Assembly (NCBI GenBank): GCA_030950905.1
Contig: JAUZQQ010000027.1
Coordinates: forward strand, 9,306 to 73,305
Direction: 5' to 3'
DNA length: 64,000 nucleotides
From: Mariprofundaceae bacterium
Lineage (GTDB): Bacteria; Pseudomonadota; Zetaproteobacteria; Mariprofundales; Mariprofundaceae
The position numbers were made by a program, and so were the translations under genes. Numbering within the stretch: the first letter of the stretch is position 1; every line of letters begins with the position of its first letter. Of the stretch, positions 1,348-62,257 are shown in pieces. The notes under the pieces are model-generated. The model saw nothing but the letters and a program-made list of their open reading frames with translations. It had not been told where the DNA came from and ran no database searches.

Positions 1348-1390
1348 GATACATCTCCCTCTTGGGTTTTATAGTAGCAGGTAGCCTCTA

Positions 1391-3619: not shown

Positions 3620-3634
3620 TATGCTCTCCTATTG

Positions 3635-4993: not shown

Positions 4994-5006
4994 GTACGTG
5001 TATTCC

Positions 5007-6481: not shown

Positions 6482-6483
6482 GA

Positions 6484-7344
6484 TTAACGCCGAATGCTTG
6501 GGCGTTGAATATCACGCAGGGGGGTTGCGATTTGTGCCACTTCGCGTTGGTGAAGCACATCATGAACACGCAAAATATCTGCCCCCACAAAACAAGCAAT
6601 AGCCACCGCCGCTGCCGTTGCCCATTCCCGTTCATCAACGCTTTTTCCTGTGATTGCACCAAGAAAGGATTTGCGAGAAACACCCAGCAATACTGGCAAG
6701 GAAAAATAGTCGCAAAGCTCATTTAAACGGGCAATCAATTGAAGGTTATCATTCAATGATTTACCAAAACCAATGCCTGGATCAAGAATAATACGTTTTC
6801 GAGCAATACCTGCTTGTTCACAAGCATGCAAACGCTGCTCAAAAAAACGAATGACGCAAGCCATAACATCAGCATCATACTGGAGGTTATGCTGCATCGT
6901 TTGCGGCGATCCTTGCATGTGCATAAGACAAATATCGGCATCACAATCTGCAAGAACGCTCATGCTTTCAGGGTCAAAACACAAGGCTGAAACATCATTA
7001 ATCATGCTTGCCCCCATCGTTACAACCTCTTGCATCAGCGCTGCTTTCATGGTGTCTACTGACACATTGCAACCTGCATCAAGCAAGCCTTGAACAACAG
7101 GAATCACCCGCTCACGTTCAGTGTGCAAAGGCACGGGGCTCGCACCTGGGCGGGTAGATTCACCGCCAACATCAATAATATCAGCACCTTGATGCCACAG
7201 ATCAATCCCATGGCTTATGGCATCGCTTGTATTTTGGTGCGTTGCGCCATCAGAAAAAGAATCAGGGGTGCAATTAAGCACCCCCATGATCCGTGGTGTT
7301 TGTCCAAGCTGACGATGCCAAGAAGATTTTAGTGCATCGGGCAT
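6484..7344 (-). CDS. folP: Dihydropteroate synthase
   Basis: GVLNCTPDSFSDG, IIDVGGESTRPGA and INDVS motifs. Located between ftsH and glmM as in many proteobacteria. Confidence 0.93.
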   Translation of the reverse strand: MPDALKSSWHRQLGQTPRIMGVLNCTPDSFSDGATHQNTSDAISHGIDLWHQGADIIDVGGESTRPGASPVPLHTERERVIPVVQGLLDAGCNVSVDTMKAALMQEVVTMGASMINDVSALCFDPESMSVLADCDADICLMHMQGSPQTMQHNLQYDADVMACVIRFFEQRLHACEQAGIARKRIILDPGIGFGKSLNDNLQLIARLNELCDYFSLPVLLGVSRKSFLGAITGKSVDEREWATAAAVAIACFVGADILRVHDVLHQREVAQIATPLRDIQRPSIRR

Positions 7345-7370
7345 AACAGCAAACCAACGCGACTTTTAGC

Positions 7371-26583: not shown

Positions 26584-27984
26584 TCAATCGCCTCTACAAA
26601 GCGTATCAACCAATTGCTTCACGCTTGGAACAAAACCATTGGTATACAAAGGATCATCTGCAAAACGGTAGGCAGTATGGCCTGCAAACATCAAATTACG
26701 GTCGAGTATACCGTCATGGGCAATGTCTTGTAAGGTTTTCTGAATACAAAAACTGCGGGGGTCAGCTTTACGCCCCGTTGTTCCTCGGTCATTTGCCGCC
26801 CAGTTAGAAAATTTACATTGGGACAAACACCCCATGCAATTTAACTGATCTTGTCGGATCTCTTGTGCTTTTTCTTCGCTGGCAAAAATTAATGTGGAAT
26901 CAGGCGTGGGCAAAGCTTTGCTAAAACCATCGTTGATCCATTCTTCGGCGCGTTTGGCATCCTGATGGGTAACAAAAACGATTTTGTCGCGAACCCCAAA
27001 AGTAAATGCTTCAACATGATCACCAGCAGGGTGATCAACAAAAGCGATTTCACGATCCGATCTAGCATACAACTCATGAAGAAAAGAATTGTATACAGCA
27101 GAAGAATAAAAACCCGTTGGTGAAAAACGATTCAACTGAATATCACCCTCTTTTAATTGCAGCAAGCGCGCCTTCCATGCATCGGAAATAGGGCTTTCTT
27201 GGGTCATTAATGGCCGCGTGCCTAATTGGAAAACAATCAAGCCAATCTCTGGATTGTCTAGCCAATCGGTCCATTCACGCAAGCACCATACCCCACCAGC
27301 CATTACAATCGGAGTTTCTTGCAGACCAAATTCATTCATGGTTTTGCGCAATAACGCAACACGTTGGTACGGTGACTCTGGTTTTTTAGGATCTTCTGAG
27401 TTGGAAAGACCATTGTGGCCACCAGCAAGCCATGGGTCTTCATAAACCACCCCCCCCAGCCATTCGGGGGCTTTGCGATAAGAGCGCAGCCATAAGGCGC
27501 GAAATGCACGCGCAGAAGAAATAATAGGGTAATAATACACCCGGTGTTTTGCCGCCAATGGTGCAAGACGAAAGGGCATACCAGCACCACAAGTCACACC
27601 GTCAATAAGATGAGAGGCTTGCTCCAATACGCCGTTTAGTACGCGTTCTGCACCACCCATTTCCCACAACACATTCATGTGCAAGCGACCACGCCCAGCA
27701 GCAATTTCGTGGGCAACACGCGCCTGACGAACACCACCAGCAATAGCCTGTGTTACCAACTCTTCAAACCGCTCTTTGCGACTCCGACCATGGTATACGG
27801 TGCGCACAATATTGCCTGATTCATCAAGCTGATCGGCATTAACCGCAGAAAATGTGCCAATGCTGCCAGCAGCAGCCCATGCGCCAGCACTTTCCCCCGT
27901 AGAAATAGCCACACCTTTTCCGCCTTCAACAAGCGGTAATACTTCTTTGCCTGAAAGCATCATTGGAGAAATATGAAATGACAT
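26584..27984 (-). CDS. FMN-dependent nitronate monooxygenase / FabK-like flavoprotein (long 466-aa form)
   Basis: TIM-barrel NMO/FabK-like pattern (VEGGKGVAIS, GVTCGAGMPF, IVMAGGVW) with a Cys-containing C-terminal extension (CMGCLSQC). The family call is by eye only. Confidence 0.5.
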   Translation of the reverse strand: MSFHISPMMLSGKEVLPLVEGGKGVAISTGESAGAWAAAGSIGTFSAVNADQLDESGNIVRTVYHGRSRKERFEELVTQAIAGGVRQARVAHEIAAGRGRLHMNVLWEMGGAERVLNGVLEQASHLIDGVTCGAGMPFRLAPLAAKHRVYYYPIISSARAFRALWLRSYRKAPEWLGGVVYEDPWLAGGHNGLSNSEDPKKPESPYQRVALLRKTMNEFGLQETPIVMAGGVWCLREWTDWLDNPEIGLIVFQLGTRPLMTQESPISDAWKARLLQLKEGDIQLNRFSPTGFYSSAVYNSFLHELYARSDREIAFVDHPAGDHVEAFTFGVRDKIVFVTHQDAKRAEEWINDGFSKALPTPDSTLIFASEEKAQEIRQDQLNCMGCLSQCKFSNWAANDRGTTGRKADPRSFCIQKTLQDIAHDGILDRNLMFAGHTAYRFADDPLYTNGFVPSVKQLVDTLCRGD

Positions 27985-42327: not shown

Positions 42328-43329
42328 TTACTGTCCCAGTGCATTTGCCTTGTTGGGTGGTACTTTTGGTTTAACCCTAGCAAGTCCATTCTCCAATATT
42401 AGTTGGATGACTTTATCATAGGCCAATCCATGCTCAATTTTACATGCTTTAGGAAAATAACTGGAATTAAATATCATGCCAGGAACCAAATTAGCCTCAA
42501 TAAAAAAACAATCTCCTGTTTTGTTGGCTTTAACATCTATCCTGCCAAAATCCCTCACACCCAAAGCCAAGAAAGAATCAATAGCAAGCTTTCTCACTTT
42601 ATTTTTCATTTCATCATGCTCAATTGATTTCAGCTCTTCCGAATCATCTTTTTTTACCTTTCGCCCTAAAATTCTAAGTCCATTTTTTGATTTCGGTGGG
42701 ACTATTTCGATAGGGGAAACTATTAATTCATTGCTTGAGGTATTTATTATAGCGACTGTAAATTCTTGTCCATCTAAATATTCTTCTACCAATACAGGGC
42801 TATTAAATGTGTTGTATAACGATAATACTTTACTTTCAAAGTCTGTATAATTTGTTACAAAAGACAAGTCATCAATTCCATTTCCGTTTGCTGCATTTAT
42901 AGGTTTCAAAAATAGAGGGAATTTAATCGGCAGTTCATTTGCACATTTATATTGCCTTGGAACTGCCATAAAATATTCCGCAGTTTTAATGCCTTTGTTT
43001 GCTAAATTTAATTTAGCACTAATTTTATTGGAATCGAACCTCAAAACATTCCTTGATGAACCTGTGAAATTTATTCCATGATGTGAAAAATATTCACTCA
43101 ACCAAATGTCATCTTCATTGTGAAGTGAAATATATTTTACAGCTAATACAAGCAAGCTTGGATTCCTTTTCACAATATTCCCTAAATCTTCTTTGGTTCT
43201 ACATATGCTTAACCTTACATCATAACCCATCCTTTCGATTGAATAAAATACGCTATTGCAAGCTTTTAGAGTTCCAAATCCTGTTTCGTTTAACGCCTCA
43301 TTTGGTGTTGTTACGATTTCAATTTTCAA
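42328..43329 (-). CDS. D-alanine--D-alanine ligase-like ATP-grasp enzyme (AT-rich, probably acquired)
   Basis: ATP-grasp C-terminal pattern FPLFLKPINAANGNGID, VLVEEYLDGQEFTVAI and FGRIDVKANKTGDCFFIEANLVPGM. Hand counts on several 60-nt lines give roughly 27-40% G+C, against about 45-60% in the flanking genes. Confidence 0.6.
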   Translation of the reverse strand: MKIEIVTTPNEALNETGFGTLKACNSVFYSIERMGYDVRLSICRTKEDLGNIVKRNPSLLVLAVKYISLHNEDDIWLSEYFSHHGINFTGSSRNVLRFDSNKISAKLNLANKGIKTAEYFMAVPRQYKCANELPIKFPLFLKPINAANGNGIDDLSFVTNYTDFESKVLSLYNTFNSPVLVEEYLDGQEFTVAIINTSSNELIVSPIEIVPPKSKNGLRILGRKVKKDDSEELKSIEHDEMKNKVRKLAIDSFLALGVRDFGRIDVKANKTGDCFFIEANLVPGMIFNSSYFPKACKIEHGLAYDKVIQLILENGLARVKPKVPPNKANALGQ

Positions 43330-43528
43330 TACGTATTCCCTTCCTAATTCTCTAAAAGTACTTGGTAGTTTTGATGCAACTAACGTCGCAATATAGCGTA
43401 CAGCAGCGTGTATAAATACGCAAGAAAATAAAAGTGTGTATCACACAGTTCATATATTTCTTGTTGTATTTTTTTCGAGCCATATCATAGCCATTTTTGG
43501 TGCTGGCTGTTGTATGATTTAATAGCCC

Positions 43529-46500
43529 ATGCGCCGATTTCCATATCAACCAAAGGTAAAGAAAAAGTACGTGCCCTCGCCCTCCTCCACCATGCAAGAA
43601 GAAAAAAAATACAAGTCTCGAGAAACCCCTATTGCCATCATTGGTATGGATGGTTTGTTTCCTGATTCACCGACGCTGGATGATTTTTGGCGCAATATTA
43701 CCAGCAAGCATACTGCCTCCCGAAGGCCTCCTGCCAACCGTTGGTTGCTTGATGCCGATACTGTTTATCACCCAGAAAGGGGGCGTGCTGATCGCGTCTA
43801 TTCCAAACAGGCATGCTTTCTTGATGATGCATGGTTGGCGCATGATCCATGTAAAAACAGTGCGATGGCTACAGCAGCGCTTGATCCCATGTTTCATTTG
43901 TTGCTTCGTGTTGGCAGGGGAGCGTGGCAAGATGCGGCCGTGGATAGTGCATCTGCTGCACGCACGGGGATTATTATGGGCAACTTGGCTTTGCCTAGCG
44001 AACAATCGTCTGCGTTGGCGCGCCGTTTTATTGACCGTACCTTAGAAGAAAAAATTCTAGCGCAGCACGCCAATCACGCACCCATGGCTTTGGATGCAAA
44101 CAATGCCCATGTTGCAGGTTTACCCGCTGCTGTCTTGGCCAAGGCATTGGGGCTTGGGGGCACGTGTTTTACACTGGATGCCGCCTGTGCCTCGTCGTTG
44201 TACGCCATTAAACTGGCGATGGATGAATTGCGCGCCCATCGTGCTGATGTGATGCTGGCAGGCGGTTTGTCGCGACCTGATTCGCTGTACACGCAAATGG
44301 GCTTTTCCCAACTGCAAGCTTTATCCGCTACGGGTGTGCCTGCGCCATTTGATGCCGCTGGAGACGGTTTGGTGGTCGGTGAAGGCTGTGGTGTTTTTGT
44401 GCTTAAACGTTTAAGCGATGCCGAGGCGGATGCTAATACCATTTATGGCGTGATTCATGCCGTAGGCGTAAGCAATGATCTAACAGGCGGCTTGCTTGCA
44501 CCAGAATCAGAAGGGCAATTGCGCGCCATGCGGTCTGCTTACCAACAAGCGGGCTGGTCACCTTCGGATGTTCAAATGATCGAATGTCATGCACCGGGTA
44601 CACCCGTGGGTGATGTGGTGGAATTTGAAAGCATGGCACGCCTGTGGCAAGATTGTAATTGGCAAGCAGGACAATGCGTTATTGGTTCAGTCAAATCAAA
44701 TATCGGTCACTTGCTCACCGCCGCAGGTTCAGCCGCCTTAATGAAAACATTGCTGGCCATGAAGCACGGCAAGCTTCCGCCCACCGCAAACTTTCACCAA
44801 GCTGCTGAGGGTATTACCCTAAAAGATAGCCCTTTTCAGGTATTGCAAGAAACACAAACGTGGGTAGCAACGGGTACGCCCCGCCGTGCAGCTATCAGTG
44901 CCTTTGGCTTTGGTGGGATTAATGCCCATTTATTGCTCGAATCATATGCCCCCAATAGCAGAAAAAAGATAATATATACTCAAAAAAAGGCAGAACCCAT
45001 TGCCATCATTGGCATGGCTGCACACGTCGGCGCATGGGACTCATTGGCGCGCGTGCAACAACAATTGTTTAGCAGCGAAACAGTAGAGCCGCAACCATTA
45101 ACCCATTGGTGGGGGGCTGAGAAGAGCCAATGGTTGGCTGCTTTGGGTATTCAAGTTGAGCGTGTTGTTGGTTATTGTATCGACGAAATTAGCGCGCCCC
45201 TTGGTGCTTACTGCATCCCGCCGCATGAAATGGCTGAGATGTTACCCCGTCAATTATTAATGCTCAACCTTGCGGCCGCTGCCTTGCTTCATGCTGGTGA
45301 TGATGATTCAAGCAATACAGGTGTATTTATCGGTACAGGGCTGGATATGCAGGCGAGCAATTTCAGTGCGCGTTGGGATGTTGCAAATAAAGTGGATGAA
45401 TGGCTTAAAATATTGGACATTGATCTTGATGAGGATGGCAAAGAAGCATGGACCACCAGTATTCGTGATGCCATTAGCCCGCCATTAAATGCAGGACGAA
45501 CCATGGGTGCATTGGGCAGCACAGTGGCCAGCCGTATTGCCAAAGCCTTTCGCACGGGGGGGGCTGCATTCACCGTCTCAGCGGAAGATCAATCAGGTTT
45601 GCGTGCGTTGGAAGTTGGGATTCATGCCTTGCAATGTGGTGATGTTTATCGCGCGTTGGTCGGGGCTGTGGACATGACCACCGATATGCGTTTATTTTTA
45701 AGTCGCCACGCACGGATGCAGACAAAAGAGTCCTTACCGCCCTTGGCGGATGGTGGTGGTGCATTAATTTTAAAGCGCGTTGACGATGCGCAGCGCGATG
45801 GTGATTGCATTTATGCCATCATTGATGGTTTTGGCACGGGCTTTGATGTATCTACATCCCTAAAGCAAGCCGTACACGACAGCCTAAAAAACACGCCCGA
45901 TCAGGCTTACAAAACCCCACAACGCCTTGGTGATGCAGGTGCAGCCAATGGCATACTTGCGACCATTCATGCGACATTATCGTTGCACCATCGTTTGCGA
46001 GCCGAAGTACCAAGCAAGGCATGGCTCAATAATCAGGCGGAAGGCAAACGCCAAATACTTGTTTCTGGCCACGGTATGGATGGCAGTTATGCCCATATTT
46101 TACTGCAAGAAAACAAAACTTCTTTGCCCAGCACCGCGCCAGCGATTATGCCCAAAGCTGGGTTGTTTGTTGTTTCTGGCACTGCCCCGAATGCGCTCAT
46201 ACAACAGCTCGAACAACTGGCGATACGCATCAAGCAATATGAAGGCAGCATTCATGATGTTGCTTGCCAAGCGTACCAGCATTTTTCACCAGGGTCATTA
46301 TGCTTAAGCATGGTTGCCGATGATGTTACCATGCTCTTGCAACACATTGCCTACGCCAAAGAATCGTTGCAGACAAACCCCACGGCATCTCTTGGTGGGC
46401 ATGGCAGCATCCCCATGCCCCAAAAGCATTTAAAAGATCGCGTTTTTTATAGCCACAAGCCACTCGCCAATAGAGGCAAGGTGGCTTTTATCTTTTCAGG

Positions 46501-49500
46501 TTCGGGCAATCATTACCCCCATATGGGAAAAGATTTATTGGCGCACTGGCCTCATAGTGTTGCAAGCCAAGAGCAAAAGAGCGATTGGCTCAAAGCGCAG
46601 TATTTACCCGATGCCGTATGGCAAAATAACATCCAACCCCTATACCAAGATCATAATGCGTTGGTGATTTCTCACGTTGCCTTGGGTACAGCCATCAGCG
46701 ATATACTGCGCGGTTTTGCTCTGCATCCATCAGCGGCAATGGGTTATAGTCTTGGCGAGTCGACCAGTTTATTTTCGCTGGGGGCGTGGTCAGACCGTGA
46801 TGCCATGGTACAAAGACTGAAAGCTTCACCCTTATTCACCGAAGAATTGGCAGGTGTGTGCCGAGCTGCGCGCAAGCAATGGCAATTGAATGAAAGCGAA
46901 ACCGTTGATTGGGTGATCGGCATGGTCAACGTGGCTGCAAGCCGTGTGAATGAAGAACTGCCAGCATTCCCAAGGGCTTATTTGCTGATCACCAACACTG
47001 CCACAGAATGTGTAATTGGTGGTCAACGCACGATGGTAATGGCTTTGGTGGGTGCACTTAACGCCCACTTTCACCCCTTGGATGGGGTCACTACCGTACA
47101 CTGTGACGTGGTCACGCCTGTGGCCGATGCCTACCATGCTTTGCATTTGTTTGACACAAAAACCCCTAAAGGCATTGATTTTTACAGCTTTGCCAGCGGT
47201 GAAAAATACACGGTTAATCGAGAAAATACAGCCAATGCGATGCTTGCGCAGGCCATGCACAGCGTGGACTTTCCTCGGCTTATTGAACAAGCCTATGGCG
47301 ACGGTGTTCGCATGTTTTTTGAGATTGGTGCAGGGCAATCCTGTTCACGTATGATTCACAGTATTTTAGGCGAACGCCCCCACCTTGCACGTTCTTCTTG
47401 CTTTGCTGGCGAATCAGCCAGTGGCCTTGTGCTGCGCACGTTGGCACAGGCTATAGCTGAGGGTCTTGATGTTGATCTTTCAAATTTATACCCTACGCCA
47501 ATAAACCAAGATCACGGGCGCACGGTAGCAGCAAGCAAGGCAGGTCTTGCCTTTTCTATAAGCTTGCCCAAGCGCAAAACAGGTATTCTCAAGACGATGC
47601 AGCCAACCCCCCAAAAGAATACGCCGCCAAGCCATACCATGGCCACAGCGTCAGAAACAAACGATTGGACATTGCCTATCCGCACGGTATTGGCAGCCAA
47701 GGCCGAAGCGCACGGGCAGTATTTGCAGTTTTCTACGGTCATGCAACATGCCATGCAACGCAGTCTTACCCTTGCCGCATCCATGCCTAAACCCACGGAT
47801 CCGCAACCACCATTACCCATGGTAAGCACGCCACCAAACTTTTTAAATCGTGCGCAATGTTTGGCTTTTGCGGTGGGTAATATTGGCGATGTGCTCGGTG
47901 AATCATTTGCTGCCATTGATCAACACCCAACACGGGTACGGCTGCCCGATGAACCCCTCATGTTGGTGGATCGCATTGTACATATCGAAGGTACGCCGCG
48001 CAGCATGCGCCATGGTCGTGTGGTAACGGAACACGATGTAAACGCCGACCGTTGGTACCTTGATGCGGGACATATCCCGACTTGCATTGCCGTGGAAGCA
48101 GGTCAAGCTGATTTGTTTTTATCGGCGTATTTGGGCATTGACTTTATCACCAAGGGCAAGGCCGTGTACCGCTTGCTTGATGCGGTCGTTACCTTTCACG
48201 ACAGCTTGCCTGTGGTGGGTGATGTCATTCATTATGACATTTATATTGATGAGTTTTTCTGCCAAGGTGATACTTGGCTATTCCGCTTTCATTTTGAAAG
48301 CACCGTGAATGGTCAAGCTTTGATGTCTATGCAAAAAGGATGTGCGGGGTTTTTCACCCAAGAAGAACTCGCTGGAGGTCAAGGCATTGTTCACACCGCT
48401 TTGGATATGCTGCCACAACAAGGTACGCTGCCGCCAAATTGGCAAGCACCACTGCCGATGCAGCAAGAACAATGGGATGATGGACACATTGCCGCTTTGT
48501 ATGCTGGTGATTTAACGGCATGTTTTGGCGCACCATTTAATAACCTGAACTTCACCCCCTACACACTTCCCCCTCAACCCCATTTGCGTTTGGTGGATCG
48601 TGTCATTTCGCTTGACCCTTCAGGTGGTCGTTACGGTATTGGGCAGATATGCGCCGAAATGGATATTCATCCCGATGATTGGTTTTTAACCTGCCACTTT
48701 GTTGACGATCAGGTGATGCCCGGCACGCTGATGTATGAATGTTGCATGCACACCTTGCGTATTTTCTTGTTGCGCATGGGTTGGGTGGGCAAAGAAGGAG
48801 AAACTTGGTGCGAACCTTTGGTGGCTATTGATAGCGGCCTTAAATGCCGTGGTCAGGTACTTGCCAGCACCAAGTTGGTGACCTACCAAGTAGACATCAA
48901 AACATTGGGTTATGAGCCAGCGCCTTTTGCTATCGTCAATGCACTGATGTTTGCAGATGGTAAACCCATTGTAGAAATCACCAATATGTCGGCATGCCTT
49001 CGTGGTTTAACACAAGAGAGCGTAGAAGCACTGTGGCAAGCACAAATAACGCAACAAATTCCAGTCCGCAGCGTATTGTACAATACCGAAAGAATCACTG
49101 CCTTTGCGATAGGCAAACCCTCTGAGGCCTTTGGTTCACGGTATACTGTTTTTGATGAACAACGAAAAATTGCCCGTTTGCCAGGGCCGCCGTTTCAGTT
49201 TTTGGATCGCATCATGGATGTCCAAGGTGAACCGTGGGTGATGCAAGCAGGTGCAAGCGTGGAAGTAGAATACACCATTCCCAGCGACGCTTGGTATTTT
49301 GAGAGCAACCGTCAAAAAAACATTCCTTTTAGTGTATTGCTGGAGATTGGTTTACAACCTTGCGGCTGGCTCGCGGCGTACATTGGTTCGGCATTAAGCT
49401 CAAGCATTGATTTATCGTTCCGCAACCTTGATGGCAATGCTGTTCAACACCGTGCAATCACGGCAAGCTCTGGCATATTAACCACCCACGTAAGCATCAC

Positions 49501-50149
49501 CAATGTTTCAAGCAGCGGTGGCATGGTGATTCAAAATTATGATTTTGAAACCCGTGATGCCCATGGTGTTGTATACACAGGAAATACAGTGTTTGGCTTT
49601 TTCTCCAAAGCCTCATTGTCGCAGCAAGTCGGTGTGCGCGGTGCTAGCCTCTACCAAGCAACAGTGCCAGAAACAGAAAGAGGGCAAAGTTTTGCCTACC
49701 CTACGCACTTCCCTTACCCCGCCCGTAAAATGCAAATGATTGATACCGTTGATCTATTTGTTCCCGACGGTGGAACCCATGGCTTGGGGTTTATTCGGGG
49801 AACAAAAAGAGTGGATCCTAATGAATGGTTTTTTAAGGCGCATTTTTACCAAGACCCTGTCTGCCCTGGTTCGCTGGGTTTGGAATCATTCTTGCAACTG
49901 CTTAAAATCGCGGCACTTCAGCGTTGGGGTGAATACAATAATGGAGAAATGCAATGCATTGTACTGGGGAAAAACCACAAATGGAACTACCGTGGGCAAA
50001 TTATTCCCAGCAACCAACAAGTAAGCGTTGAAGCCATGATTACAGCAGTGGATGAATCGGCACGAATGCTTACTGCCGATGGGTATTTATCGGTGGATGG
50101 AAAAACAATTTATCAGATGTTTGATTTTACCATCAAGTTGGGTGGATAA
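43529..50149 (+). CDS. PfaC/Pfa3-like multidomain PUFA-synthase-type protein: KS - CLF - AT - (pseudoDH-DH FabA-like) x2
   Basis: KS (about 43625-44945): DAACASS with Cys220 (44186-44188), ECHAPGTPVGD and KSNIGH. CLF (about 44994-46112): the aligned site reads FTVSAEDQSG, with Asp687 (45587-45589) in place of Cys. AT (about 46479-47400): GYSLGES with Ser1074 (46748-46750). FabA-like DH sites: LTCHFVDDQVMPGTL (His1723, 48695-48697) and FKAHFYQDPVCPGSLGLE (His2105, 49841-49843). No DSL/ACP, KR or ER motifs. The start is uncertain (ATG 43529 or ATG 43592, MQEEKK). Confidence 0.85.
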   Translation: MRRFPYQPKVKKKYVPSPSSTMQEEKKYKSRETPIAIIGMDGLFPDSPTLDDFWRNITSKHTASRRPPANRWLLDADTVYHPERGRADRVYSKQACFLDDAWLAHDPCKNSAMATAALDPMFHLLLRVGRGAWQDAAVDSASAARTGIIMGNLALPSEQSSALARRFIDRTLEEKILAQHANHAPMALDANNAHVAGLPAAVLAKALGLGGTCFTLDAACASSLYAIKLAMDELRAHRADVMLAGGLSRPDSLYTQMGFSQLQALSATGVPAPFDAAGDGLVVGEGCGVFVLKRLSDAEADANTIYGVIHAVGVSNDLTGGLLAPESEGQLRAMRSAYQQAGWSPSDVQMIECHAPGTPVGDVVEFESMARLWQDCNWQAGQCVIGSVKSNIGHLLTAAGSAALMKTLLAMKHGKLPPTANFHQAAEGITLKDSPFQVLQETQTWVATGTPRRAAISAFGFGGINAHLLLESYAPNSRKKIIYTQKKAEPIAIIGMAAHVGAWDSLARVQQQLFSSETVEPQPLTHWWGAEKSQWLAALGIQVERVVGYCIDEISAPLGAYCIPPHEMAEMLPRQLLMLNLAAAALLHAGDDDSSNTGVFIGTGLDMQASNFSARWDVANKVDEWLKILDIDLDEDGKEAWTTSIRDAISPPLNAGRTMGALGSTVASRIAKAFRTGGAAFTVSAEDQSGLRALEVGIHALQCGDVYRALVGAVDMTTDMRLFLSRHARMQTKESLPPLADGGGALILKRVDDAQRDGDCIYAIIDGFGTGFDVSTSLKQAVHDSLKNTPDQAYKTPQRLGDAGAANGILATIHATLSLHHRLRAEVPSKAWLNNQAEGKRQILVSGHGMDGSYAHILLQENKTSLPSTAPAIMPKAGLFVVSGTAPNALIQQLEQLAIRIKQYEGSIHDVACQAYQHFSPGSLCLSMVADDVTMLLQHIAYAKESLQTNPTASLGGHGSIPMPQKHLKDRVFYSHKPLANRGKVAFIFSGSGNHYPHMGKDLLAHWPHSVASQEQKSDWLKAQYLPDAVWQNNIQPLYQDHNALVISHVALGTAISDILRGFALHPSAAMGYSLGESTSLFSLGAWSDRDAMVQRLKASPLFTEELAGVCRAARKQWQLNESETVDWVIGMVNVAASRVNEELPAFPRAYLLITNTATECVIGGQRTMVMALVGALNAHFHPLDGVTTVHCDVVTPVADAYHALHLFDTKTPKGIDFYSFASGEKYTVNRENTANAMLAQAMHSVDFPRLIEQAYGDGVRMFFEIGAGQSCSRMIHSILGERPHLARSSCFAGESASGLVLRTLAQAIAEGLDVDLSNLYPTPINQDHGRTVAASKAGLAFSISLPKRKTGILKTMQPTPQKNTPPSHTMATASETNDWTLPIRTVLAAKAEAHGQYLQFSTVMQHAMQRSLTLAASMPKPTDPQPPLPMVSTPPNFLNRAQCLAFAVGNIGDVLGESFAAIDQHPTRVRLPDEPLMLVDRIVHIEGTPRSMRHGRVVTEHDVNADRWYLDAGHIPTCIAVEAGQADLFLSAYLGIDFITKGKAVYRLLDAVVTFHDSLPVVGDVIHYDIYIDEFFCQGDTWLFRFHFESTVNGQALMSMQKGCAGFFTQEELAGGQGIVHTALDMLPQQGTLPPNWQAPLPMQQEQWDDGHIAALYAGDLTACFGAPFNNLNFTPYTLPPQPHLRLVDRVISLDPSGGRYGIGQICAEMDIHPDDWFLTCHFVDDQVMPGTLMYECCMHTLRIFLLRMGWVGKEGETWCEPLVAIDSGLKCRGQVLASTKLVTYQVDIKTLGYEPAPFAIVNALMFADGKPIVEITNMSACLRGLTQESVEALWQAQITQQIPVRSVLYNTERITAFAIGKPSEAFGSRYTVFDEQRKIARLPGPPFQFLDRIMDVQGEPWVMQAGASVEVEYTIPSDAWYFESNRQKNIPFSVLLEIGLQPCGWLAAYIGSALSSSIDLSFRNLDGNAVQHRAITASSGILTTHVSITNVSSSGGMVIQNYDFETRDAHGVVYTGNTVFGFFSKASLSQQVGVRGASLYQATVPETERGQSFAYPTHFPYPARKMQMIDTVDLFVPDGGTHGLGFIRGTKRVDPNEWFFKAHFYQDPVCPGSLGLESFLQLLKIAALQRWGEYNNGEMQCIVLGKNHKWNYRGQIIPSNQQVSVEAMITAVDESARMLTADGYLSVDGKTIYQMFDFTIKLGG

Positions 50150-50158
50150 AAATAACCT

Positions 50159-51226
50159 ATGAATACACGTTCTATTATTCCCGAAGTTGCAGTTCCACGC
50201 GCTACGTTGCAAAAAATGCAAGACTTTGCAGCGTTAATGCTTGGGCTAAAAAAACAAGCTGCGTACCAACAATGGATTGCCAAAAGTGTTCCTGCCTCAG
50301 CCATGTTGGGCAATGATGATGCCCCCATATTAATGGGCTTTGATTTTCACCTTAGCCCTGATGGTCCTAAATTGATTGAAATCAACAACAATGCAGGTGG
50401 TTTGTTTACAGGCATCAATGGTTGGCTACCGCAGCCCGCGATTGATGGCTGTTTAACCGAGCGTTTGCTGCAAATGTTTCCAGAACATTGGCAGAGCATT
50501 GCTATTGTTGATGCCGATATTGAACAGCAATTCATGTTCCCCGAAATGCTCGCGTATGCGGGCATGCTGCGCGAGGCTGGCCGCGATGTCTTTGTGTGCA
50601 GTCCCGAAGCTATTGTGCGCCGTAATGATGGCTTGTATGTAGAGAATCAACGACTCGATGCTATTTACAACCGTCATACCGATTTTTATTTGCAAACGCC
50701 TGCGATGGCACATATTTGCGACGCTTTACAACACCAACACATTGCACTGAACCCATTCCCCCGTAGTTATGCGTTATTGGGCGATAAAAACCGCATGGCG
50801 GATTGGTGGCAAGCGGATGTCTTGGAGCAATGGTTTTCTGCCGAGTCATGCGCCATTGTTCGGAATATTGTTCCGCAAGTGCAACGCCTGCAAGATGTTG
50901 ATGCTGATACGGCTTGGTCGCAGCGCAAGCGTTGGGTATTTAAACCGCCCGACAGCCATGCGGGCAAAGGCGTGGTGCTTGGTAAGGCCATGTCGCGCAA
51001 ACGCTTTGCCTCACTTGACCGTTGCACCACGCTGATGCAGGAATATATTCCTGCCAGTGAAATCACCAGCGAGCATGGTGAGACTTTTCGTTTTGATGTG
51101 CGTCTGTATATGCACGGTGCAACAAGCATCGCATGGGCAGGACGCGCATGGCGCGGGCAATTAACCAATTTTAGAGAGCAAGGAAGTGGCTGGACAAGTA
51201 TTCAAGCGGTGGACGATCGTTGTTGA
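50159..51226 (+). CDS. ATP-grasp-fold protein of the circularly permuted / glutathionylspermidine-synthase-like type (tentative)
   Basis: FDFHLSPDGPKLIEINNNAGG near the N-terminus, LDAIYNRHTDFYL, ALNPFPRSYALLGDKNRMA and RWVFKPPDSHAGKGVVLG. The order of these blocks matches permuted ATP-grasp ligases. Starts 9 nt after the Pfa-like stop. Confidence 0.45.
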   Translation: MNTRSIIPEVAVPRATLQKMQDFAALMLGLKKQAAYQQWIAKSVPASAMLGNDDAPILMGFDFHLSPDGPKLIEINNNAGGLFTGINGWLPQPAIDGCLTERLLQMFPEHWQSIAIVDADIEQQFMFPEMLAYAGMLREAGRDVFVCSPEAIVRRNDGLYVENQRLDAIYNRHTDFYLQTPAMAHICDALQHQHIALNPFPRSYALLGDKNRMADWWQADVLEQWFSAESCAIVRNIVPQVQRLQDVDADTAWSQRKRWVFKPPDSHAGKGVVLGKAMSRKRFASLDRCTTLMQEYIPASEITSEHGETFRFDVRLYMHGATSIAWAGRAWRGQLTNFREQGSGWTSIQAVDDRC

Positions 51227-52492: not shown

Positions 52493-52646
52493 GTGAGCGC
52501 GCTCTTTTCTTGCCTACACGCAGGGTTGTTCTGTGTGGCTCTTTGTAAATGACAAGTGGGAAAGCCAAGTTAATTCTGCATAATTGCCAGCCAACGTTTT
52601 AAAAACTTCCCCTTATTTTTATAAATACCCTACTAAGGATGTCCCC

Positions 52647-53903
52647 ATGCGTTTTATTCATGCAGCAGATTTGCATATTGACAGCCCGTTGCGAGGACTT
52701 AGTCGCTATGAAGGCGCGCCTGTTGAGCAACTGCGTAGTGCAACGCGAGAGGCATTTAAAAAACTGGTGGATCTGGCGATTTATGAAAAAGTTCAGTTTG
52801 TTATTCTTGCGGGTGATATTTATGATGGTGAGTGGCAAGATTTTCACACAGGGCTTTTTTTTCGTGGCGAGATGATTCGTCTGCAACAAAAAGCCATCCG
52901 TGTTTTTATTGTTCATGGCAACCACGACGCGGAAAGTGTGATAACACGCCAGTTGGATTTACCCAGCAATGTGAAGGTTTTTAGCAGTCGAAAAGCTGAA
53001 ACGGTTAAGATAAATGAACTTTCAGTGGCGATTCATGGCCGTAGCTTCCCCAACCGTGCGGTTGATGAAGATTTGGTTCCCAGTTACCCTGAGCCAATCA
53101 CAGCTTGCTTTAATATTGGTATATTACACACGAGCCTGAGCGGTAATGCTGCCCATGATACGTATGCGCCCTGCCACAAAGAAACGTTGATTGAGAAAGG
53201 TTATGATTATTGGGCATTGGGTCATGTTCATATGCGAGAAGTGGTCTGCGATATGCCCCGCATCATTTTCTCTGGCAACTTGCAAGGTCGCCATGCCAAA
53301 GAAACAGGGGCAAAGGGCTGTGAACTTGTCACGGTAAAATTAGGGATGATTAAATCTGAGTTCGTCGCTTTGGATGTGGTGCGCTGGCATCAAATCAGTA
53401 TTTGCCTTGATCGTATTGATACATTACAAGCCGTTGCCACTGCTTTTCGAGAAAAACTTAAACCGCTACTGCTTGAAGCTGACGATCAATTGCATGCTGT
53501 GCGTGTGCAACTGAATGGTTCAACCGATTTGCACGCCATAGAAGCCAATCAGCCGGGCACCTTAGATGCAGCCATTCGTGCGGCAGCTCAAGATGTTGAT
53601 GACAGTAAAATTTGGATTGAAAAAGTAAAACTTTCGCTCATTACTCGGTTAGATAGAACGCAATTGGGGCAACGTGATGATGCTATTGGCGAGCTTGTTC
53701 ATTTGGTGGATATGATGGCTCAAGATGAACACGGGCTTACACGTTTAATCGAGCAAGAGATAAACGCTGTTTTAAAACTGCCCCATGGCATGGATAACGA
53801 TGGTGACATGGCATTTGATAACCATGAAACACGTTTGAAATTATTACACGATGCTGAGGCAACCGTGCTTGCTCGCTTATCAAATATGGGAGAACAGTCA
53901 TGA
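52647..53903 (+). CDS. SbcD/Mre11-family metallophosphoesterase nuclease (YhaO/SbcF-like)
   Basis: Start moved to ATG 52647 (AAGGA SD at 52635-52639): MRFIHAADLHIDSPL. Also AGDIYDG, VHGNHD and ALGHVHM. Confidence 0.8.
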   Translation: MRFIHAADLHIDSPLRGLSRYEGAPVEQLRSATREAFKKLVDLAIYEKVQFVILAGDIYDGEWQDFHTGLFFRGEMIRLQQKAIRVFIVHGNHDAESVITRQLDLPSNVKVFSSRKAETVKINELSVAIHGRSFPNRAVDEDLVPSYPEPITACFNIGILHTSLSGNAAHDTYAPCHKETLIEKGYDYWALGHVHMREVVCDMPRIIFSGNLQGRHAKETGAKGCELVTVKLGMIKSEFVALDVVRWHQISICLDRIDTLQAVATAFREKLKPLLLEADDQLHAVRVQLNGSTDLHAIEANQPGTLDAAIRAAAQDVDDSKIWIEKVKLSLITRLDRTQLGQRDDAIGELVHLVDMMAQDEHGLTRLIEQEINAVLKLPHGMDNDGDMAFDNHETRLKLLHDAEATVLARLSNMGEQS

Positions 53904-56900
53904 AAATAAAACGTTTATTGCTTCATGCCTTTGGCCCCTTTAGCGAGAAAGAGATTGATTTATCAGCCCCTACAAATGAAAACGCTGGCCTTTTGCATTT
54001 AATTTATGGCCCCAATGAAGCAGGGAAATCATCGGCATTACGCGCCATGGGTGATTTGCGTTTTGGCATCCACGCCCGTAGTGCAGATAATTTTATCCAC
54101 GATTATAAAAAACTTCGCATTGCAGCAGAATTTATTGATAGCAATGGTCAAGCTGTGTGCCTGATACGCCGCAAAGGTCGTGGTAAAACACTGGCTATGT
54201 TTGATCGAGAAACAGGTGAAGAAATTGAAGGTTTGGATGTTTCCAGAGAACACCAACTGGCTTTAACTGATGGTTTGGATAAATCAAAGTTTGAGTCCAT
54301 GTTTGGTTTAAACCATGAACGTCTAAGAAAGGGTGGGCAATCACTGCTTAAAGGTGAAGGTGAATTGGGTTCGGCACTGTTTGAAGCCAGCACGGGCACG
54401 CGTGGCATCAATGACATGATCAAAGAACTGGATGATGAAGCAAGAGACTATTTTAGTCCGCGTGCTTCTACTTCTCTCATCATGGCTGCAAAAAACGAAT
54501 GGAATGAACAGAAAAAGATCTACAACCAAGCATTAAGCCGACCCAAAGCATGGAAAGATTTAAACAACGCTCATGAAGAGGCGAAAGAATATTTAAATAC
54601 AATCGATCAGAATTTAGAGAAAAAACGTCGGCGCAACAATGAACTCATCGAATTGCGTACGGTCGCGCCTTTATTACAGGCATATGATCACGCGCTTTAT
54701 ATAGTAGAATCCTTGCAGGATGCACCAAATATTCCCCAAGACTCGCGTGAAAAACGTTTGGCAGCCGAGCAAGCCATTACCCATGCCGAGCAAGCTATTG
54801 AAACGGCTGAGTCTGAATTGCACCATTGCCAAGAGGGTTTGAACCATCTGACCATAGAAGTTATTTTACTCAAACATGATGATACCATTGAACGCTTGGC
54901 TGCAAATATTGAATCGGTGCAACGAAGTCATATTGAAGCCTTAAAACAAGCAGCCGCTATCCAACAGCATAAAAAAACATTGCTTGAGCGGGTCAAACGC
55001 ATTTCTTCTGAGCAGTCTATTGATCAAATGCTTGCTACTAAACCATCCGATGCGGATGCCCTTGAATTAAACGAGCACTTGGATGCCATCGCCCGATTAT
55101 CTGAAAAACATAAAGGTTTAGAGGAGCGTATTGAAGATTTTGGTGAGACAGAAAAGCCGCAGATCAAGCACGAAATACTTTCAAGCGACCCTGTTACACG
55201 CCAAGCTTTGCAGCAAACGCTGAAAGAAGCCCAAGCACTTGGTGATATTTCTCAACAAAAATCCAATGTATTGCGTGAGATAAGAGAACTTGAAAAAAAA
55301 CTCGCCCGTTCTTTGACTGATTTGAATGCGCGCTCTGATCATGAACTTCGTATCCGCAAGGTCATGATGGAATCCCAGATCAATGAGGTTCAAAACAAAC
55401 AACGTGACATAAATACTGCCATTCGAACTTTAAAAGATGAAGACGAGCGATTACTTAACGACCTTGAAGAACAAAAAAATAAACAGCGGCAACTAAAAGC
55501 AGGGGGGCAGATGGTAACATTTGATAGCTTGCAAGATGCCCGGAAAAACCGAGATAAAACTTGGGCATTGATTTGTCAAACCTATATTGAGCCGATCTCG
55601 GATGCTTTTCAGCAAGGCGCTGATCAAACACTGCCAAAATATTTTGAATTGACACAGCAGAAGTCCGATGAACAAGCCGATCTTTTGCGAGCCGATGCAA
55701 AAAGGGCGACGCTTTTTGAAGCCAGCCTCGCACGCATGGAACGTATAAACAAAAGACATGCCATGATTGTTGAGCGTTTAACCCTACATTTCAACAAGAA
55801 AAAAAGGCTTGATCTAACATGGAAAGAACAATTAATTGAGGCCAAATTGCCTTTGTTGCCCCCTGAGGCTCTGCGTGAATGGCAAATGGCGCGGGATTCA
55901 AGTTTGGATATTGCAGATCAGTTGACTGAGAAAAAAAGAAACCATGATGTTTTTCTTAAAAATGAACACAAGGCAGTATCAGGGCTTGGCATCGCATTAC
56001 AGGCCGTGAATATAAAAATTTCATCTTCCCCGCCGCTTTCTCAATTGATGGAACAAGCAACTTTATGGGAGAAGTCGGCAACAGAAAATGATGCCAAACG
56101 CAATGCCGATGCTAAAAATGCAAAGGAGCGAGAAGCAGAATACAAAAAAATATCGGCGCAATATGAAACCATCAGCCACGAGCTTGATGGCCATAAACGC
56201 ACCGTTCAGAACTGGTGTCCACGGCTTTTTTTAAACGATAACAGTGGTGTTGAAACGATCAAAAAACGCTTGCTTGAGCTTGATAGTATTTACCGTGATG
56301 ACTTGTCATTAAGAGATTCAGAATTAAGACTTGAACAATCACAAGCCATTAGGGCTGATTTTGAAAAACAGGCATCTGAATTGGCGAATTTACTGGGCGA
56401 GCCCAAGCCAGACATCGCGGCTGATTTTGCATCCTGTTTGCGCAAACGCCTTTTAAATACGCGCCAACAAGAACAAAAACGAATCACCTTAGAAGAAAGC
56501 CAACAAGCATTCAATATTTCAAAATTAAAAGCCGAAGATGAAGCGGTAAAACAAACGATTGTATTAAAAAAACTTTGTAAAGCTGCGGCTGTTGATCAAC
56601 CTGCGAAGTTGCCTGATCAAGAAGAACGAGCGACGCAAAAACGCGAGGCTCAGCATAACGTTGAAACGCAGAAACGCATGCTACAGCAAGCTTCCAATCA
56701 CCCTGAAAAGGATTTGCGTGAACGATTGCTTGGACAAGATATTTTTTCGATTGATACTGAAAAAAAAGAATGTGGTGAAAATATTGCCCGTTTGGAAAAA
56801 GAGCGGGTGACTGCACGGCAAAGAGAAGAGACCACACGTATCGCATTAGAAGCGATTGATGCATCGGATAAAGCAGCGGCAGCACAAGAAGCGATGGAAT

Positions 56901-57409
56901 CTGCTGCTGCCAAATACCGAGAAGCGATCCAACCTTGGGCTAGGCTTAAAATTGCCCATAAGCTGTTACAATCTGCTTTAAATACCTTCAAAAAACGCGC
57001 ACAAGCACCCATGGTGGCATCGGCATCCAAGTACTTTGCCATTATAACCGATCAGCGTTATATTAGGTTGATGGCGGATGAATCTGAAAAAGTCCCCGTC
57101 CTTGTTGCCGAGCGAGAGGATGGAAAAACCATTCGGGTTGAAGCCATGAGTGCAGGTACGGCTGATCAACTCTACCTAGCATTACGCCTCGCCTCGCTTG
57201 AGCTTCGCAGCAGTACCAACAGCCAAATGCCGCTGATACTTGATGATGTATTGATGACCTCGGATGATCAACGCAGCAAAAATACCTTAAAAGCGCTGGT
57301 GAAGTTCGCACAATCGGGGCAAGTCATTTTGTTTACCCACCATCAGCATTTGATTAACCTGGCTAAATCCACGCTCCCCAAGCATGAGCTTATGGTGCAT
57401 GAGTTATGA
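53900..57409 (+). CDS. SbcC/Rad50-like AAA ATPase with long coiled coil (YhaN/SbcE-like)
   Basis: Walker A YGPNEAGKSS, about 800 aa of Glu/Lys/Gln-rich helical sequence, signature MSAGTADQLYLALRLA and Walker B PLILDDVL. ATGA overlap with the nuclease gene. None of the 7 cysteines forms a CxxC motif. Confidence 0.8.
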   Translation: MKIKRLLLHAFGPFSEKEIDLSAPTNENAGLLHLIYGPNEAGKSSALRAMGDLRFGIHARSADNFIHDYKKLRIAAEFIDSNGQAVCLIRRKGRGKTLAMFDRETGEEIEGLDVSREHQLALTDGLDKSKFESMFGLNHERLRKGGQSLLKGEGELGSALFEASTGTRGINDMIKELDDEARDYFSPRASTSLIMAAKNEWNEQKKIYNQALSRPKAWKDLNNAHEEAKEYLNTIDQNLEKKRRRNNELIELRTVAPLLQAYDHALYIVESLQDAPNIPQDSREKRLAAEQAITHAEQAIETAESELHHCQEGLNHLTIEVILLKHDDTIERLAANIESVQRSHIEALKQAAAIQQHKKTLLERVKRISSEQSIDQMLATKPSDADALELNEHLDAIARLSEKHKGLEERIEDFGETEKPQIKHEILSSDPVTRQALQQTLKEAQALGDISQQKSNVLREIRELEKKLARSLTDLNARSDHELRIRKVMMESQINEVQNKQRDINTAIRTLKDEDERLLNDLEEQKNKQRQLKAGGQMVTFDSLQDARKNRDKTWALICQTYIEPISDAFQQGADQTLPKYFELTQQKSDEQADLLRADAKRATLFEASLARMERINKRHAMIVERLTLHFNKKKRLDLTWKEQLIEAKLPLLPPEALREWQMARDSSLDIADQLTEKKRNHDVFLKNEHKAVSGLGIALQAVNIKISSSPPLSQLMEQATLWEKSATENDAKRNADAKNAKEREAEYKKISAQYETISHELDGHKRTVQNWCPRLFLNDNSGVETIKKRLLELDSIYRDDLSLRDSELRLEQSQAIRADFEKQASELANLLGEPKPDIAADFASCLRKRLLNTRQQEQKRITLEESQQAFNISKLKAEDEAVKQTIVLKKLCKAAAVDQPAKLPDQEERATQKREAQHNVETQKRMLQQASNHPEKDLRERLLGQDIFSIDTEKKECGENIARLEKERVTARQREETTRIALEAIDASDKAAAAQEAMESAAAKYREAIQPWARLKIAHKLLQSALNTFKKRAQAPMVASASKYFAIITDQRYIRLMADESEKVPVLVAEREDGKTIRVEAMSAGTADQLYLALRLASLELRSSTNSQMPLILDDVLMTSDDQRSKNTLKALVKFAQSGQVILFTHHQHLINLAKSTLPKHELMVHEL

Positions 57410-60376: not shown

Positions 60377-60985
60377 CTATTTTTTTCCAATCGTTGGTTC
60401 TTCATGACGCAACAAACGCTGAATATTGCTAATGTGGCGAATGATCACAAGTGCCGCTAAGATTAAAGCAGCCAAAAGTGTTGCCCTCCCGCCTGTATGC
60501 GAGAAAAAAACCAATACGGGAACCAATGCCGCAGCGACGATTGAAGCAACGGCAACATAGCGGGTGGTGAAAAGCACAATCAACCATGCTGCAAAAGCTG
60601 TTACACTGATCCATGGCAACCACGGCAATAACACCCCAAACATCGTAGCCACGCCTTTGCCACCACGAAACTTTAAATAAACAGGGAAAATATGACCGAC
60701 AAAAGCGGCCAAGGCGACACATACGAGCAATATTTCATCGCCATGGCGTTCTGCCAAAGCAACCACCAATGCACCCTTGCCCACATCGGCCAGCAAAGTC
60801 AATATGCCCACTGTTTTCCCTGCGGTGCGCAAGGCATTGGTTGCGCCAATATTACCGCTGCCATGCTCGCGCGGGTCTTTGTTGCTTAAAGCTTTGCTAA
60901 ATAACAAGCCAAAAGGAATACTTCCCAACAAATATGCGCCGATACACCACAGCCAAAATGTAGACGTTGCAAGGAAATCAATCAT
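60377..60985 (-). CDS. plsY: Glycerol-3-phosphate acyltransferase (acyl-phosphate dependent)
   Basis: Hallmark HGSGNIGATNALR, FRGGKGVAT, and 5-6 TM segments. Confidence 0.93.
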   Translation of the reverse strand: MIDFLATSTFWLWCIGAYLLGSIPFGLLFSKALSNKDPREHGSGNIGATNALRTAGKTVGILTLLADVGKGALVVALAERHGDEILLVCVALAAFVGHIFPVYLKFRGGKGVATMFGVLLPWLPWISVTAFAAWLIVLFTTRYVAVASIVAAALVPVLVFFSHTGGRATLLAALILAALVIIRHISNIQRLLRHEEPTIGKK

Positions 60986-61000
60986 TATAGATCATAAAGA

Positions 61001-61954
61001 TCATAATTTACGGTAACTTTTTCGATTAATGTTTAATTGTTGCTGAAGCCGTTTTGCTTGAACACCATTGATATAGCGCGGTAAAACAGACTCAACCGAT
61101 GATGGCGAACCAAAACAAACAGGGAATGGTGTGTCGCCATCAACAACATTATCTGATTGAAGCATCGTCAATTGATCGGGGGTTAGCGGCGGCACAGGTA
61201 AAAACTGTAAGACTTTGGCCAGCATGCCTGCGATGGCGTTGGGTACGGGCAGACACAAGCGTGTTCGTTGTTTGTGTGCCAACAATACATCAACCAGTGT
61301 ATGAAAGGTGTATGATGTTGGTCCGCCAAGATCATAACTTTGCCCAACGCTTGTCATACTGCCCATGCTTTGAACAAAAGCACGGGCAACATCTTCTACC
61401 CACACAGGTTGAAAACGGGTATTGCCTGCAATAACAGGAAAAACAGGAAGAAAGCGAGACATCACATCAAGCTTGTTAAAAAAATCATCCTCCTGTCCAA
61501 AAATAACGGAGGGACGCATGATTGTCCAATCAAGGGGTGAATCACGCACCAGTTTTTCTGCTGCATGTTTACTGCGCCCATACGCACTCTCACTTTGACC
61601 GCTCGCGCCCAATGCACTCATATGAAGGTAGCGTTGAACACCCAAGGCCTCACAGGCCTTTAGAATGTTTCGTGTGCCGTGCACATGCGCAGCATCAAAA
61701 GTATAACAGCCACGTTCAAACAATAACCCGACCAAATTAATCACACCATCCATGCCAGCCACGGCTTCCTTCAAGCCTTTGCCACTGCAAATATCAGCTT
61801 TGCATAAATCGCTAACACCAGCAACCAATAAATACCTGGCCTTTTCAGGATGCCTACAAGCCACGCGCACTTGATAACCTGCCATCAAAGCCTGCCGCAT
61901 CACTGAGCGTCCAACAAAGCCACTGCCACCAATAATACAGATGTTTTTCGCCAT
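61001..61954 (-). CDS. NAD(P)-binding atypical SDR (NDUFA9 / NmrA-like epimerase-dehydratase family)
   Basis: Start moved to ATG 61954 (GGAGG at 61962-61966): MAKNICIIGGSGFVGRS Rossmann motif. The track start is 61996. Confidence 0.7.
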   Translation of the reverse strand: MAKNICIIGGSGFVGRSVMRQALMAGYQVRVACRHPEKARYLLVAGVSDLCKADICSGKGLKEAVAGMDGVINLVGLLFERGCYTFDAAHVHGTRNILKACEALGVQRYLHMSALGASGQSESAYGRSKHAAEKLVRDSPLDWTIMRPSVIFGQEDDFFNKLDVMSRFLPVFPVIAGNTRFQPVWVEDVARAFVQSMGSMTSVGQSYDLGGPTSYTFHTLVDVLLAHKQRTRLCLPVPNAIAGMLAKVLQFLPVPPLTPDQLTMLQSDNVVDGDTPFPVCFGSPSSVESVLPRYINGVQAKRLQQQLNINRKSYRKL

Positions 61955-62257
61955 AAAATCCCCTCCATTTAAGCCCATTATGCAACGCCTTTGCAAGCGG
62001 TCTATCCATCAGTATTGATGATAACATCGTACAACAGGCTGCCAATACAACAAAGGATAGCATTAACGGTAAAGACTACAAATATGTATTTCGGCATTAA
62101 AACATGCGGCTAAGCATTCATCATAAATAAGGTGGGGCTCTGTGACCAATACGCTTGAATTTACCGCGATCATCCCTACTTTTTTAAAGGGGGTTGCCAT
62201 TTTTAATGCAGCGTTTTAGGCTAACAATTTTTAGAGGACATACTATTATAACAACCC

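Follow-up and report, generated by a model that had tools for sequence, protein, structure and literature searches.

The 64-kb stretch of Mariprofundaceae DNA analysed here (hereafter the window; GC content about 46%) carries a gene of the pfaBC type at 43529-50149 on the forward strand. It is a single 6.6-kb open reading frame (ORF) encoding a 2206-residue protein with, in order, a ketosynthase (KS), a chain-length factor (CLF), an acyltransferase (AT) and two pairs of a pseudo-dehydratase (DH') with a FabA-like dehydratase (DH), that is, KS-CLF-AT-(DH'-DH)x2. The protein is a 100% match to NCBI MDQ6975415.1, encoded on a 79-kb contig of a metagenome-assembled genome (MAG) of Mariprofundaceae (Zetaproteobacteria) with locus-tag prefix Q9M22; the host is a marine, microaerophilic, iron-oxidising bacterium. 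Polyunsaturated fatty acid (PUFA) synthases are regarded as obligatorily multi-subunit assemblies centred on the tandem acyl carrier proteins (ACPs) of PfaA, and to our knowledge this is the first pfa-type gene noted in Zetaproteobacteria. Here, the fused subunit is encoded apart from its usual partners. It represents a horizontally acquired, selectively maintained pfaBC subunit that, in our tentative reading, may act in trans on the carriers of type II fatty-acid synthesis (FAS II).

The catalytic residues of the protein are intact. The ketosynthase (residues 31-480; 43619..44968, +) has a complete triad formed by Cys220 in FTLDAACASSLYAI, His354 in HAPGTP and His394 in NIGH. In the second KS-like domain (residues about 490-870; 44996..46138, +), Asp687 occupies the Cys-equivalent site, as in a CLF. 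The AT domain (residues 981-1300; 46469..47428, +) retains its catalytic His and a GYSLGES motif in which Ser1074 is preceded by Tyr1073. Two pairs follow, each placing a FabA-like domain behind a pseudo-DH segment: a dehydratase/isomerase pair (residues 1421-1830; 47789..49018, +) and a dehydratase pair (residues 1831-2206; 49019..50149, +), with catalytic His1723 and His2105, respectively. Every residue named in a preliminary description of the DNA is in place, and both its domain reading and its idea of a PfaB+PfaC fusion are borne out. Pfam detects the KS (33-480), the second KS-like stretch, a weak AT match (987-1138) and three FabA stretches, while NCBIfam adds PfaB_fam (TIGR02816, residues 981-1280) and FabA. 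The top solved structure is 6riw, the KS-CLF didomain of Moritella PfaC (E 2e-116).

The AT domain carries Tyr-Ser instead of the His-Ser of malonyl transferases, and the Gln and Arg used for malonate binding are not kept. On these residues it is of the PfaB type and not a malonyl loader; the substrates of PfaB-type ATs are long acyl chains, and malonyl units are not loaded by them (PMC12895367). A malonyl loader is thus missing from the protein too, and an external FabD-like loader would be needed in any case. No PP-binding, ketoreductase (KR) or enoyl reductase (ER) domain was detected by Pfam in the 2206 residues. The stretch between AT and DH, singled out earlier as the place where an ACP or KR could have been missed, was considered as a hidden carrier or reductase and rejected: this Pro-rich linker (residues 1301-1420; 47429..47788, +) gives no Pfam or profile match, evolves fast (ratio of nonsynonymous to synonymous substitution rates, dN/dS, 0.31) and holds just six family-invariant columns.

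Full-length comparison places the protein at 50-55% identity and 98-99% coverage to homologues from Desulfuromonas, Malonomonas and Desulfuromusa, with 50.6% identity over 2375 aligned positions to the D. soudanensis homologue. By this measure no family is closer to it than the Type I pfaBC fusion found in Desulfuromonadales and Geobacter. Type I secondary-lipid (Pfa-like) synthases are described from Desulfuromonas, Geobacter, Pelobacter and Gemmata (Shulse & Allen 2011, PMC3098273), and the cluster with the pfaBC fusion has been proposed as a supplier of olefin synthesis (PMC3098273; for the link between pfa and ole, PMC6463001). Aligned with 119 homologues, the Zetaproteobacterial protein shares the KS-CLF-AT-DH'-DH-DH'-DH order with this family, together with full-length similarity, the KS triad, a Cys-less CLF, a Tyr-Ser AT and both DH His residues. 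Unlike the Type I proteins, it has a shortened C-terminal half of the CLF (deletions of 43, 13, 10 and 10 residues), a trait that is also found, like the HAPGTP motif, in its nearest pfaA-linked relative, P0004. Some 75 residues are lost in this way from residues 728-870 (about 45710-46138) in the Zetaproteobacterial proteins and P0004; in D. soudanensis, at least, the corresponding stretch still shows an ETHGSG-like KS motif. CLF degeneration therefore varies from one subclade of the pfaBC family to another.

Two other systems invite comparison. Myxobacterial Pfa3 (Aetherobacter, Minicystis; PMC8436480) likewise carries KS-CLF-AT-DH/DH' in one polypeptide of a three-subunit synthase, and the preliminary description had pointed to its domain order. 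It is not the closest family: identity to the Myxococcota/Polyangiales loci is 35-37%, pfa3 is clustered with pfa1 and pfa2, and Pfa3 bears an extra C-terminal AGPAT domain (PMC8436480), whereas here the ORF stops after the second FabA-like DH (Pfam). The 6riw match and the Tyr-Ser AT without Gln/Arg recall PfaB and PfaC of Moritella, Shewanella and Photobacterium, as do the pseudo-DH segments ahead of FabA-like DH pairs in gammaproteobacterial PfaC (PMC4882568). Unlike these separate proteins, which are always encoded in pfaABCD(E) clusters with a tandem-ACP PfaA, the Zetaproteobacterial protein is fused and orphaned.

Every Pfa cluster has at least one KS, ACP and KR, the ACP usually in tandem (PMC3098273). 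The D. soudanensis locus runs pfaD-pfaA (5 tandem ACPs)-pfaBC-...-oleABCD-PPTase (phosphopantetheinyl transferase). In contrast to this Type I arrangement, the Zetaproteobacterial gene is found without pfaD, pfaA, oleABCD or PPTase in the 64 kb, and neither a linked pfaA with ACP and KR nor a PfaD-type ER is present at the locus. The window contains no further pfa-like gene in the 43 kb upstream of pfaBC or in the 14 kb that follow it downstream. A profile hidden Markov model found no ACP in the six-frame translation, with 5/5 ACPs recovered in the Desulfuromonas control; tblastn with PfaA, PfaD, PPTase and OleABCD of D. soudanensis, with AcpP, FabG and AcpS of E. coli and with Sfp of B. subtilis gave no match outside the pfaBC ORF; and no malonyl-loading AT occurs within the 64 kb. 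The earlier claims that the window lacks an ACP and an Sfp-like gene therefore stand. Its further claim, that the window lacks any Rossmann-type KR or ER, is right for a PfaA-type KR and a PfaD-type ER; it overlooked two reductase-family genes, an extended SDR and an NMO-family flavoprotein (both treated below), neither of which is pfa-type. The orphan context recurs in a second genome. The next relative of the protein (74% identity) is encoded on a 77-kb JGI contig (IMG Ga0256751_1000005, metagenome 3300023442) from another Zetaproteobacterial assembly, and its 20-kb locus, of which about 3.6 kb lie downstream of the gene and 10 kb upstream, contains no ACP, PfaA, PfaD, PPTase, FabG or Ole gene.

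With every partner function missing locally, and with the gene present in just two related Zetaproteobacterial assemblies among the hundreds that hold the three-gene operon lying downstream of it, pfaBC could be a non-functional relic of a partial horizontal transfer, heading for loss. The selection analysis strongly disfavours this explanation, which we rate as the most improbable of those considered. The 6.6-kb frame is intact in both lineages at a synonymous divergence (dS) of about 1.3, and dN/dS between the two copies is 0.13 overall, similar to the 0.11-0.13 of native neighbour genes in the same pair of genomes. By region, the ratio is 0.09 in KS, 0.18 in CLF, 0.11 in AT, 0.09 in the first DH pair and 0.10 in the second, rising to 0.2-0.3 in the linkers only; these ratios show purifying selection on every domain. 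All catalytic residues are retained, and the GC content has ameliorated to that of the host. Across 116 homologues, 719 aligned columns are at least 97% invariant. The Zetaproteobacterial proteins retain 93-95% of these columns, the same fraction as P0004, and changes restricted to Zetaproteobacteria affect nine of the 719, mostly conservatively. The low dN/dS and this P0004-like retention indicate that the enzyme has been maintained as a canonical PfaBC, and the protein is best read as a functional, still-working enzyme.

The relatives of the gene also bear on its origin. After the 74% relative come two proteins at 59% identity and then more than 100 at 50-55%, the named ones from Desulfuromonadales. 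P0004 (locus L003, 63% GC) is the mutual nearest relative of the Zetaproteobacterial proteins. In the nearest relatives outside the Zetaproteobacteria, P0004/L003 and L050 (57% GC), pfaA overlaps the start of pfaBC; upstream of the Zetaproteobacterial copies, by contrast, lies lspA in one case and a divergent Ddl-like gene in the other. The GC content of pfaBC (49.5%) matches that of the native downstream genes (49.1%) and not that of the relatives (57-64%), which argues for long residence in the host lineage. As judged from these comparisons, the gene is of horizontal origin. An ancestor of one Mariprofundaceae sublineage would have gained pfaBC from a Desulfuromonadales-like donor pool; the gene would have arrived, or survived, without pfaD, pfaA, ole and PPTase, and would then have become embedded among housekeeping operons. 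Since the partner subunits bearing the carrier were not acquired with it, the carrier protein must be encoded elsewhere and is possibly that of FAS II.

Given that neither the protein nor its surroundings provide a carrier, KR, ER or malonyl loader, action in trans on FAS II is the likeliest of the readings considered, and we favour FAS II carriers, short of confidence, over an unlinked PfaA/PfaD set. The presumed partners would be the ACP, FabG, FabI and FabD of FAS II. In such a scheme, the KS-CLF pair would elongate using FabD-loaded malonyl-ACP and acyl-ACP, FabG would reduce the beta-keto group, the FabA-like DH pairs would dehydrate and isomerise to cis double bonds, and FabI or FabK would reduce where needed, while the PfaB-type AT would move long acyl chains off or onto the carrier. 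The net effect would be a fused, FabA/FabB-like module for unsaturation and elongation, and the identity of its product is likewise conjectural. The resemblance to FabA/FabB would lie in the combination of FabA-type dehydration and isomerisation with elongation of the ACP-bound cis intermediate by a KS. It is an analogy by inference: FabA and FabB are discrete small proteins, unlike this 2206-residue fusion with its CLF and PfaB-type AT. Cross-talk of this kind with FAS II has a precedent, as the DH region of Photobacterium profundum PfaC, expressed alone in E. coli, raised total fatty acids up to 5-fold (reviewed in PMC4882568). It is possible, though we hold it less firmly than action in trans on FAS II as such, that PfaBC has been domesticated in this microaerophilic iron oxidiser as a stand-alone, oxygen-independent FabA/FabB-like device working on the acyl-ACP of FAS II. 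The same stand-alone principle might apply to Desulfobacterales pfaBC-oleABCD loci without a nearby pfaA.

Several points weigh against action on FAS II, and some of them speak at the same time for a conventional synthase split across the genome, with pfaD, pfaA (KS-MAT-ACPn-KR-DH', MAT being the malonyl-acyltransferase) and a PfaE-type PPTase encoded elsewhere. Such a synthase would use the tandem ACPs of PfaA and make a polyunsaturated acyl product. We know of no PUFA-synthase KS-CLF shown to use AcpP. The evidence comes from 64 kb of the 79-kb contig, with 15 kb outside, and the MAG may be incomplete. With nine Zetaproteobacteria-only changes and a P0004-like retention of invariant columns, the protein is indistinguishable at conserved positions from its pfaA-linked relatives and gives no sign of adaptation to a new carrier. 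Unlinked arrangements are also common. In a protein-based scan of GTDB genome contigs, used for linkage base rates (41 loci, none Zetaproteobacterial and the source MAG not among them), 21 loci offer 3.5 kb or more of upstream sequence, and about 6 of these have no adjacent pfaA, including the pfaBC-ole loci L042, L014 and L020. Conversely, a pfaA-like gene of Desulfobacterales (ACP-KR-DH, L131) has no pfaBC after it. The pfaE gene is often unlinked (PMC8436480). In addition, Type J of Planctomyces limnophilus (pfaD and pfaA only) is likewise explained by a Type I-like cluster that was transferred or retained in part (PMC3098273); it represents the reciprocal case, keeping the carrier, KR and ER subunits without pfaBC.

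Against a split synthase, neither the protein database nor the metagenome contigs yielded a PfaA of the matching clade. When 5.8 billion proteins were searched with the ACP-KR-DH' segment of the PfaA encoded beside P0004, only P0302 and P0258 among the matches listed exceeded 52% identity (53-56%). Both belong to the L050 lineage, which has its own pfaBC, and their recovery is a positive control that shows what identity to expect inside the clade. No Zetaproteobacterial PfaA is named among the matches listed; the remaining ones are at or below 52%, the named ones mostly of the Desulfuromonadales/Geobacter type. A PfaA scan of metagenome contigs reached 48% identity at best, and none of the contigs came from the metagenome in which the 74% relative occurs. 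Because organism names are attached to only about a quarter of the database proteins, a divergent Zetaproteobacterial PfaA without a name could be concealed among the 42-48% matches of the protein search. These negatives lower the chance of an unlinked PfaA but do not remove it. The lack of pfa-like genes around pfaBC in both genomes also counts against a split synthase, and a literature search gave no paper naming both Mariprofundus and polyketide synthases. On balance we regard the split synthase as a possible explanation, ranked behind action in trans on FAS II. The choice posed by the preliminary description, between a partner encoded elsewhere and the housekeeping ACP with FabG, remains the correct framing.

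Two observations from these surveys are recorded here. Six loci (L042, L015, L014, L020, L025 and L045) show neither pfaA nor pfaD in the flanks read, which extend 10 kb upstream in L042, L014, L020 and L025 and about 4 kb in L015 and L045; pfaBC is followed by oleABCD in L042, by oleA/B/C in L020 and by oleA in L014 and L015. Three low-GC contigs with pfaA and pfaBC (L051, L052 and L123) were considered as Zetaproteobacterial clusters and rejected, their PfaA being 58-61% identical to that of Desulfuromonas and hence of the ordinary Desulfuromonadales type.

Either outcome would matter beyond this locus. If one subunit has long been kept under strong selection without the rest, Pfa subunits may plug into ordinary fatty-acid synthesis, which, if true, would help the engineering of unsaturated lipids and inform the evolution of megasynthases from FabA/FabB/FabD-like parts. 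Alternatively, cluster-based mining may underestimate how often pfa genes are dispersed in genomes. In about 30% of the loci surveyed no pfaA adjoins pfaBC, and mining that uses tandem ACPs as its anchor overlooks such loci. The presence of a pfa-type gene in Zetaproteobacteria also bears on the lipid biomarkers of marine iron mats.

Upstream, pfaBC is separated from a divergent Ddl-like ATP-grasp gene (42328-43329, -) by an AT-rich intergenic region of 199 bp (43330..43528), the presumed promoter region; no convincing consensus promoter was found in it, and a promoter scan gave nothing above chance. Downstream, a native Zetaproteobacterial ATP-grasp ligase gene of 355 codons (50159..51226, +) starts 9 bp past the pfaBC stop, a gap that makes co-transcription likely. 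It is the first of a trio completed by a family 2 glycosyltransferase (GT2; TIGR04283; 51220..51900, +) and a DUF2064/CofC-like transferase (TIGR04282; 51890..52492, +). Just after the trio lies the best terminator-like hairpin of the region (52517..52547, +; 9-bp stem), which likely marks the end of a pfaBC-trio transcription unit.

This arrangement raises the question of whether pfaBC has been recruited, together with the ATP-grasp ligase, GT2 and DUF2064 proteins, into a new pathway, for example towards an acylated or glycosylated lipid-like product. The 74% relative shows the same pfaBC-trio junction (gap 16 bp) although its upstream genes differ, with lspA overlapping the pfaBC start by one base, and the sole good terminator-like hairpin of the region follows the trio. 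However, the ATP-grasp protein has 420 homologues across the Zetaproteobacteria, including Mariprofundus and Ghiorsea, and M. micogutta as well as the closest relatives (62-67% identity) have the trio with no pfaBC upstream of it; one of these relatives has RNase HII-ABC synteny in common with the window. This distribution indicates that pfaBC was inserted upstream of a native operon in one sublineage, and one ancestral insertion suffices to explain the shared junction. Moreover, the AlphaFold model of the ATP-grasp protein (pLDDT 89) has a glutathione-synthetase-like fold with no lipid link, and recruitment would still leave the carrier missing. The ligase is probably not functionally tied to pfaBC, and recruitment into a trio pathway is unlikely, if somewhat less so than a relic. 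The recurrence of the junction in two independent assemblies and the host-like GC content also led us to reject an assembly chimera.

Elsewhere the trio shows further context. In this locus as in L001, L006, L007 and L049, its GT2 and DUF2064 members are labelled ‘arsenosugar biosynthesis’ by NCBIfam, with no ArsS-type radical-SAM gene nearby. An arsenosugar or arsenolipid link was rejected: the radical-SAM gene of the window is RlmN, and the one adjacent to the trio in relatives is RlmN-like (37% identical). In these relatives, the divergent neighbours of the trio are this RlmN-like gene and a nucleosidase-family gene (PNP_UDP_1). The L007 trio contig is Zetaproteobacterial and comes from the sample that also holds P0003 (59% identity, 2305 residues, full-length CLF; L005, Logan SRR25425419, gene 461-7378). 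In place of pfaA, 460 bp of AT-rich non-coding DNA lie ahead of the P0003 gene, which may be another orphan pfaBC.

The other large ORFs of the window are housekeeping genes, among them FtsH, UvrD, GlgB, RlmN, GatAB, Ffh, IspG, RNase HII, YchF, Pth, L25, DprA and PlsY. Directly after the trio, an SbcD/Mre11-like phosphoesterase and a 1169-residue AAA_27/SMC-like ATPase (52584-57409, +) form an SbcCD-like pair that is not conserved beside the trio in other Zetaproteobacterial loci. The extended SDR/NAD-binding Rossmann protein (61001-61996, -) adjoins plsY (60377-60985, -) and does not resemble the KR of PfaA; its matches to HpnA and OleD are weak and far below threshold, and it is probably unrelated to the pfaBC gene.

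The NMO-family flavoprotein (466 residues; 26584-27984, -) was considered as a displaced PfaD and rejected, as it shows no significant similarity to PfaD and is structurally closest to FabX of H. pylori. Entries for that enzyme are its sole solved relatives (7e1q and others; E 1.6e-16 over residues 15-315). It retains the GGH catalytic motif, and a CxxCxxxC...C signature at residues 383-413 resembles the four Cys of the FabX [4Fe-4S] cluster. This FabX-like protein may be an unsaturated-fatty-acid enzyme of the FabX type in a microaerophile, and the native unsaturated-fatty-acid enzyme of the host may be FabX-like.

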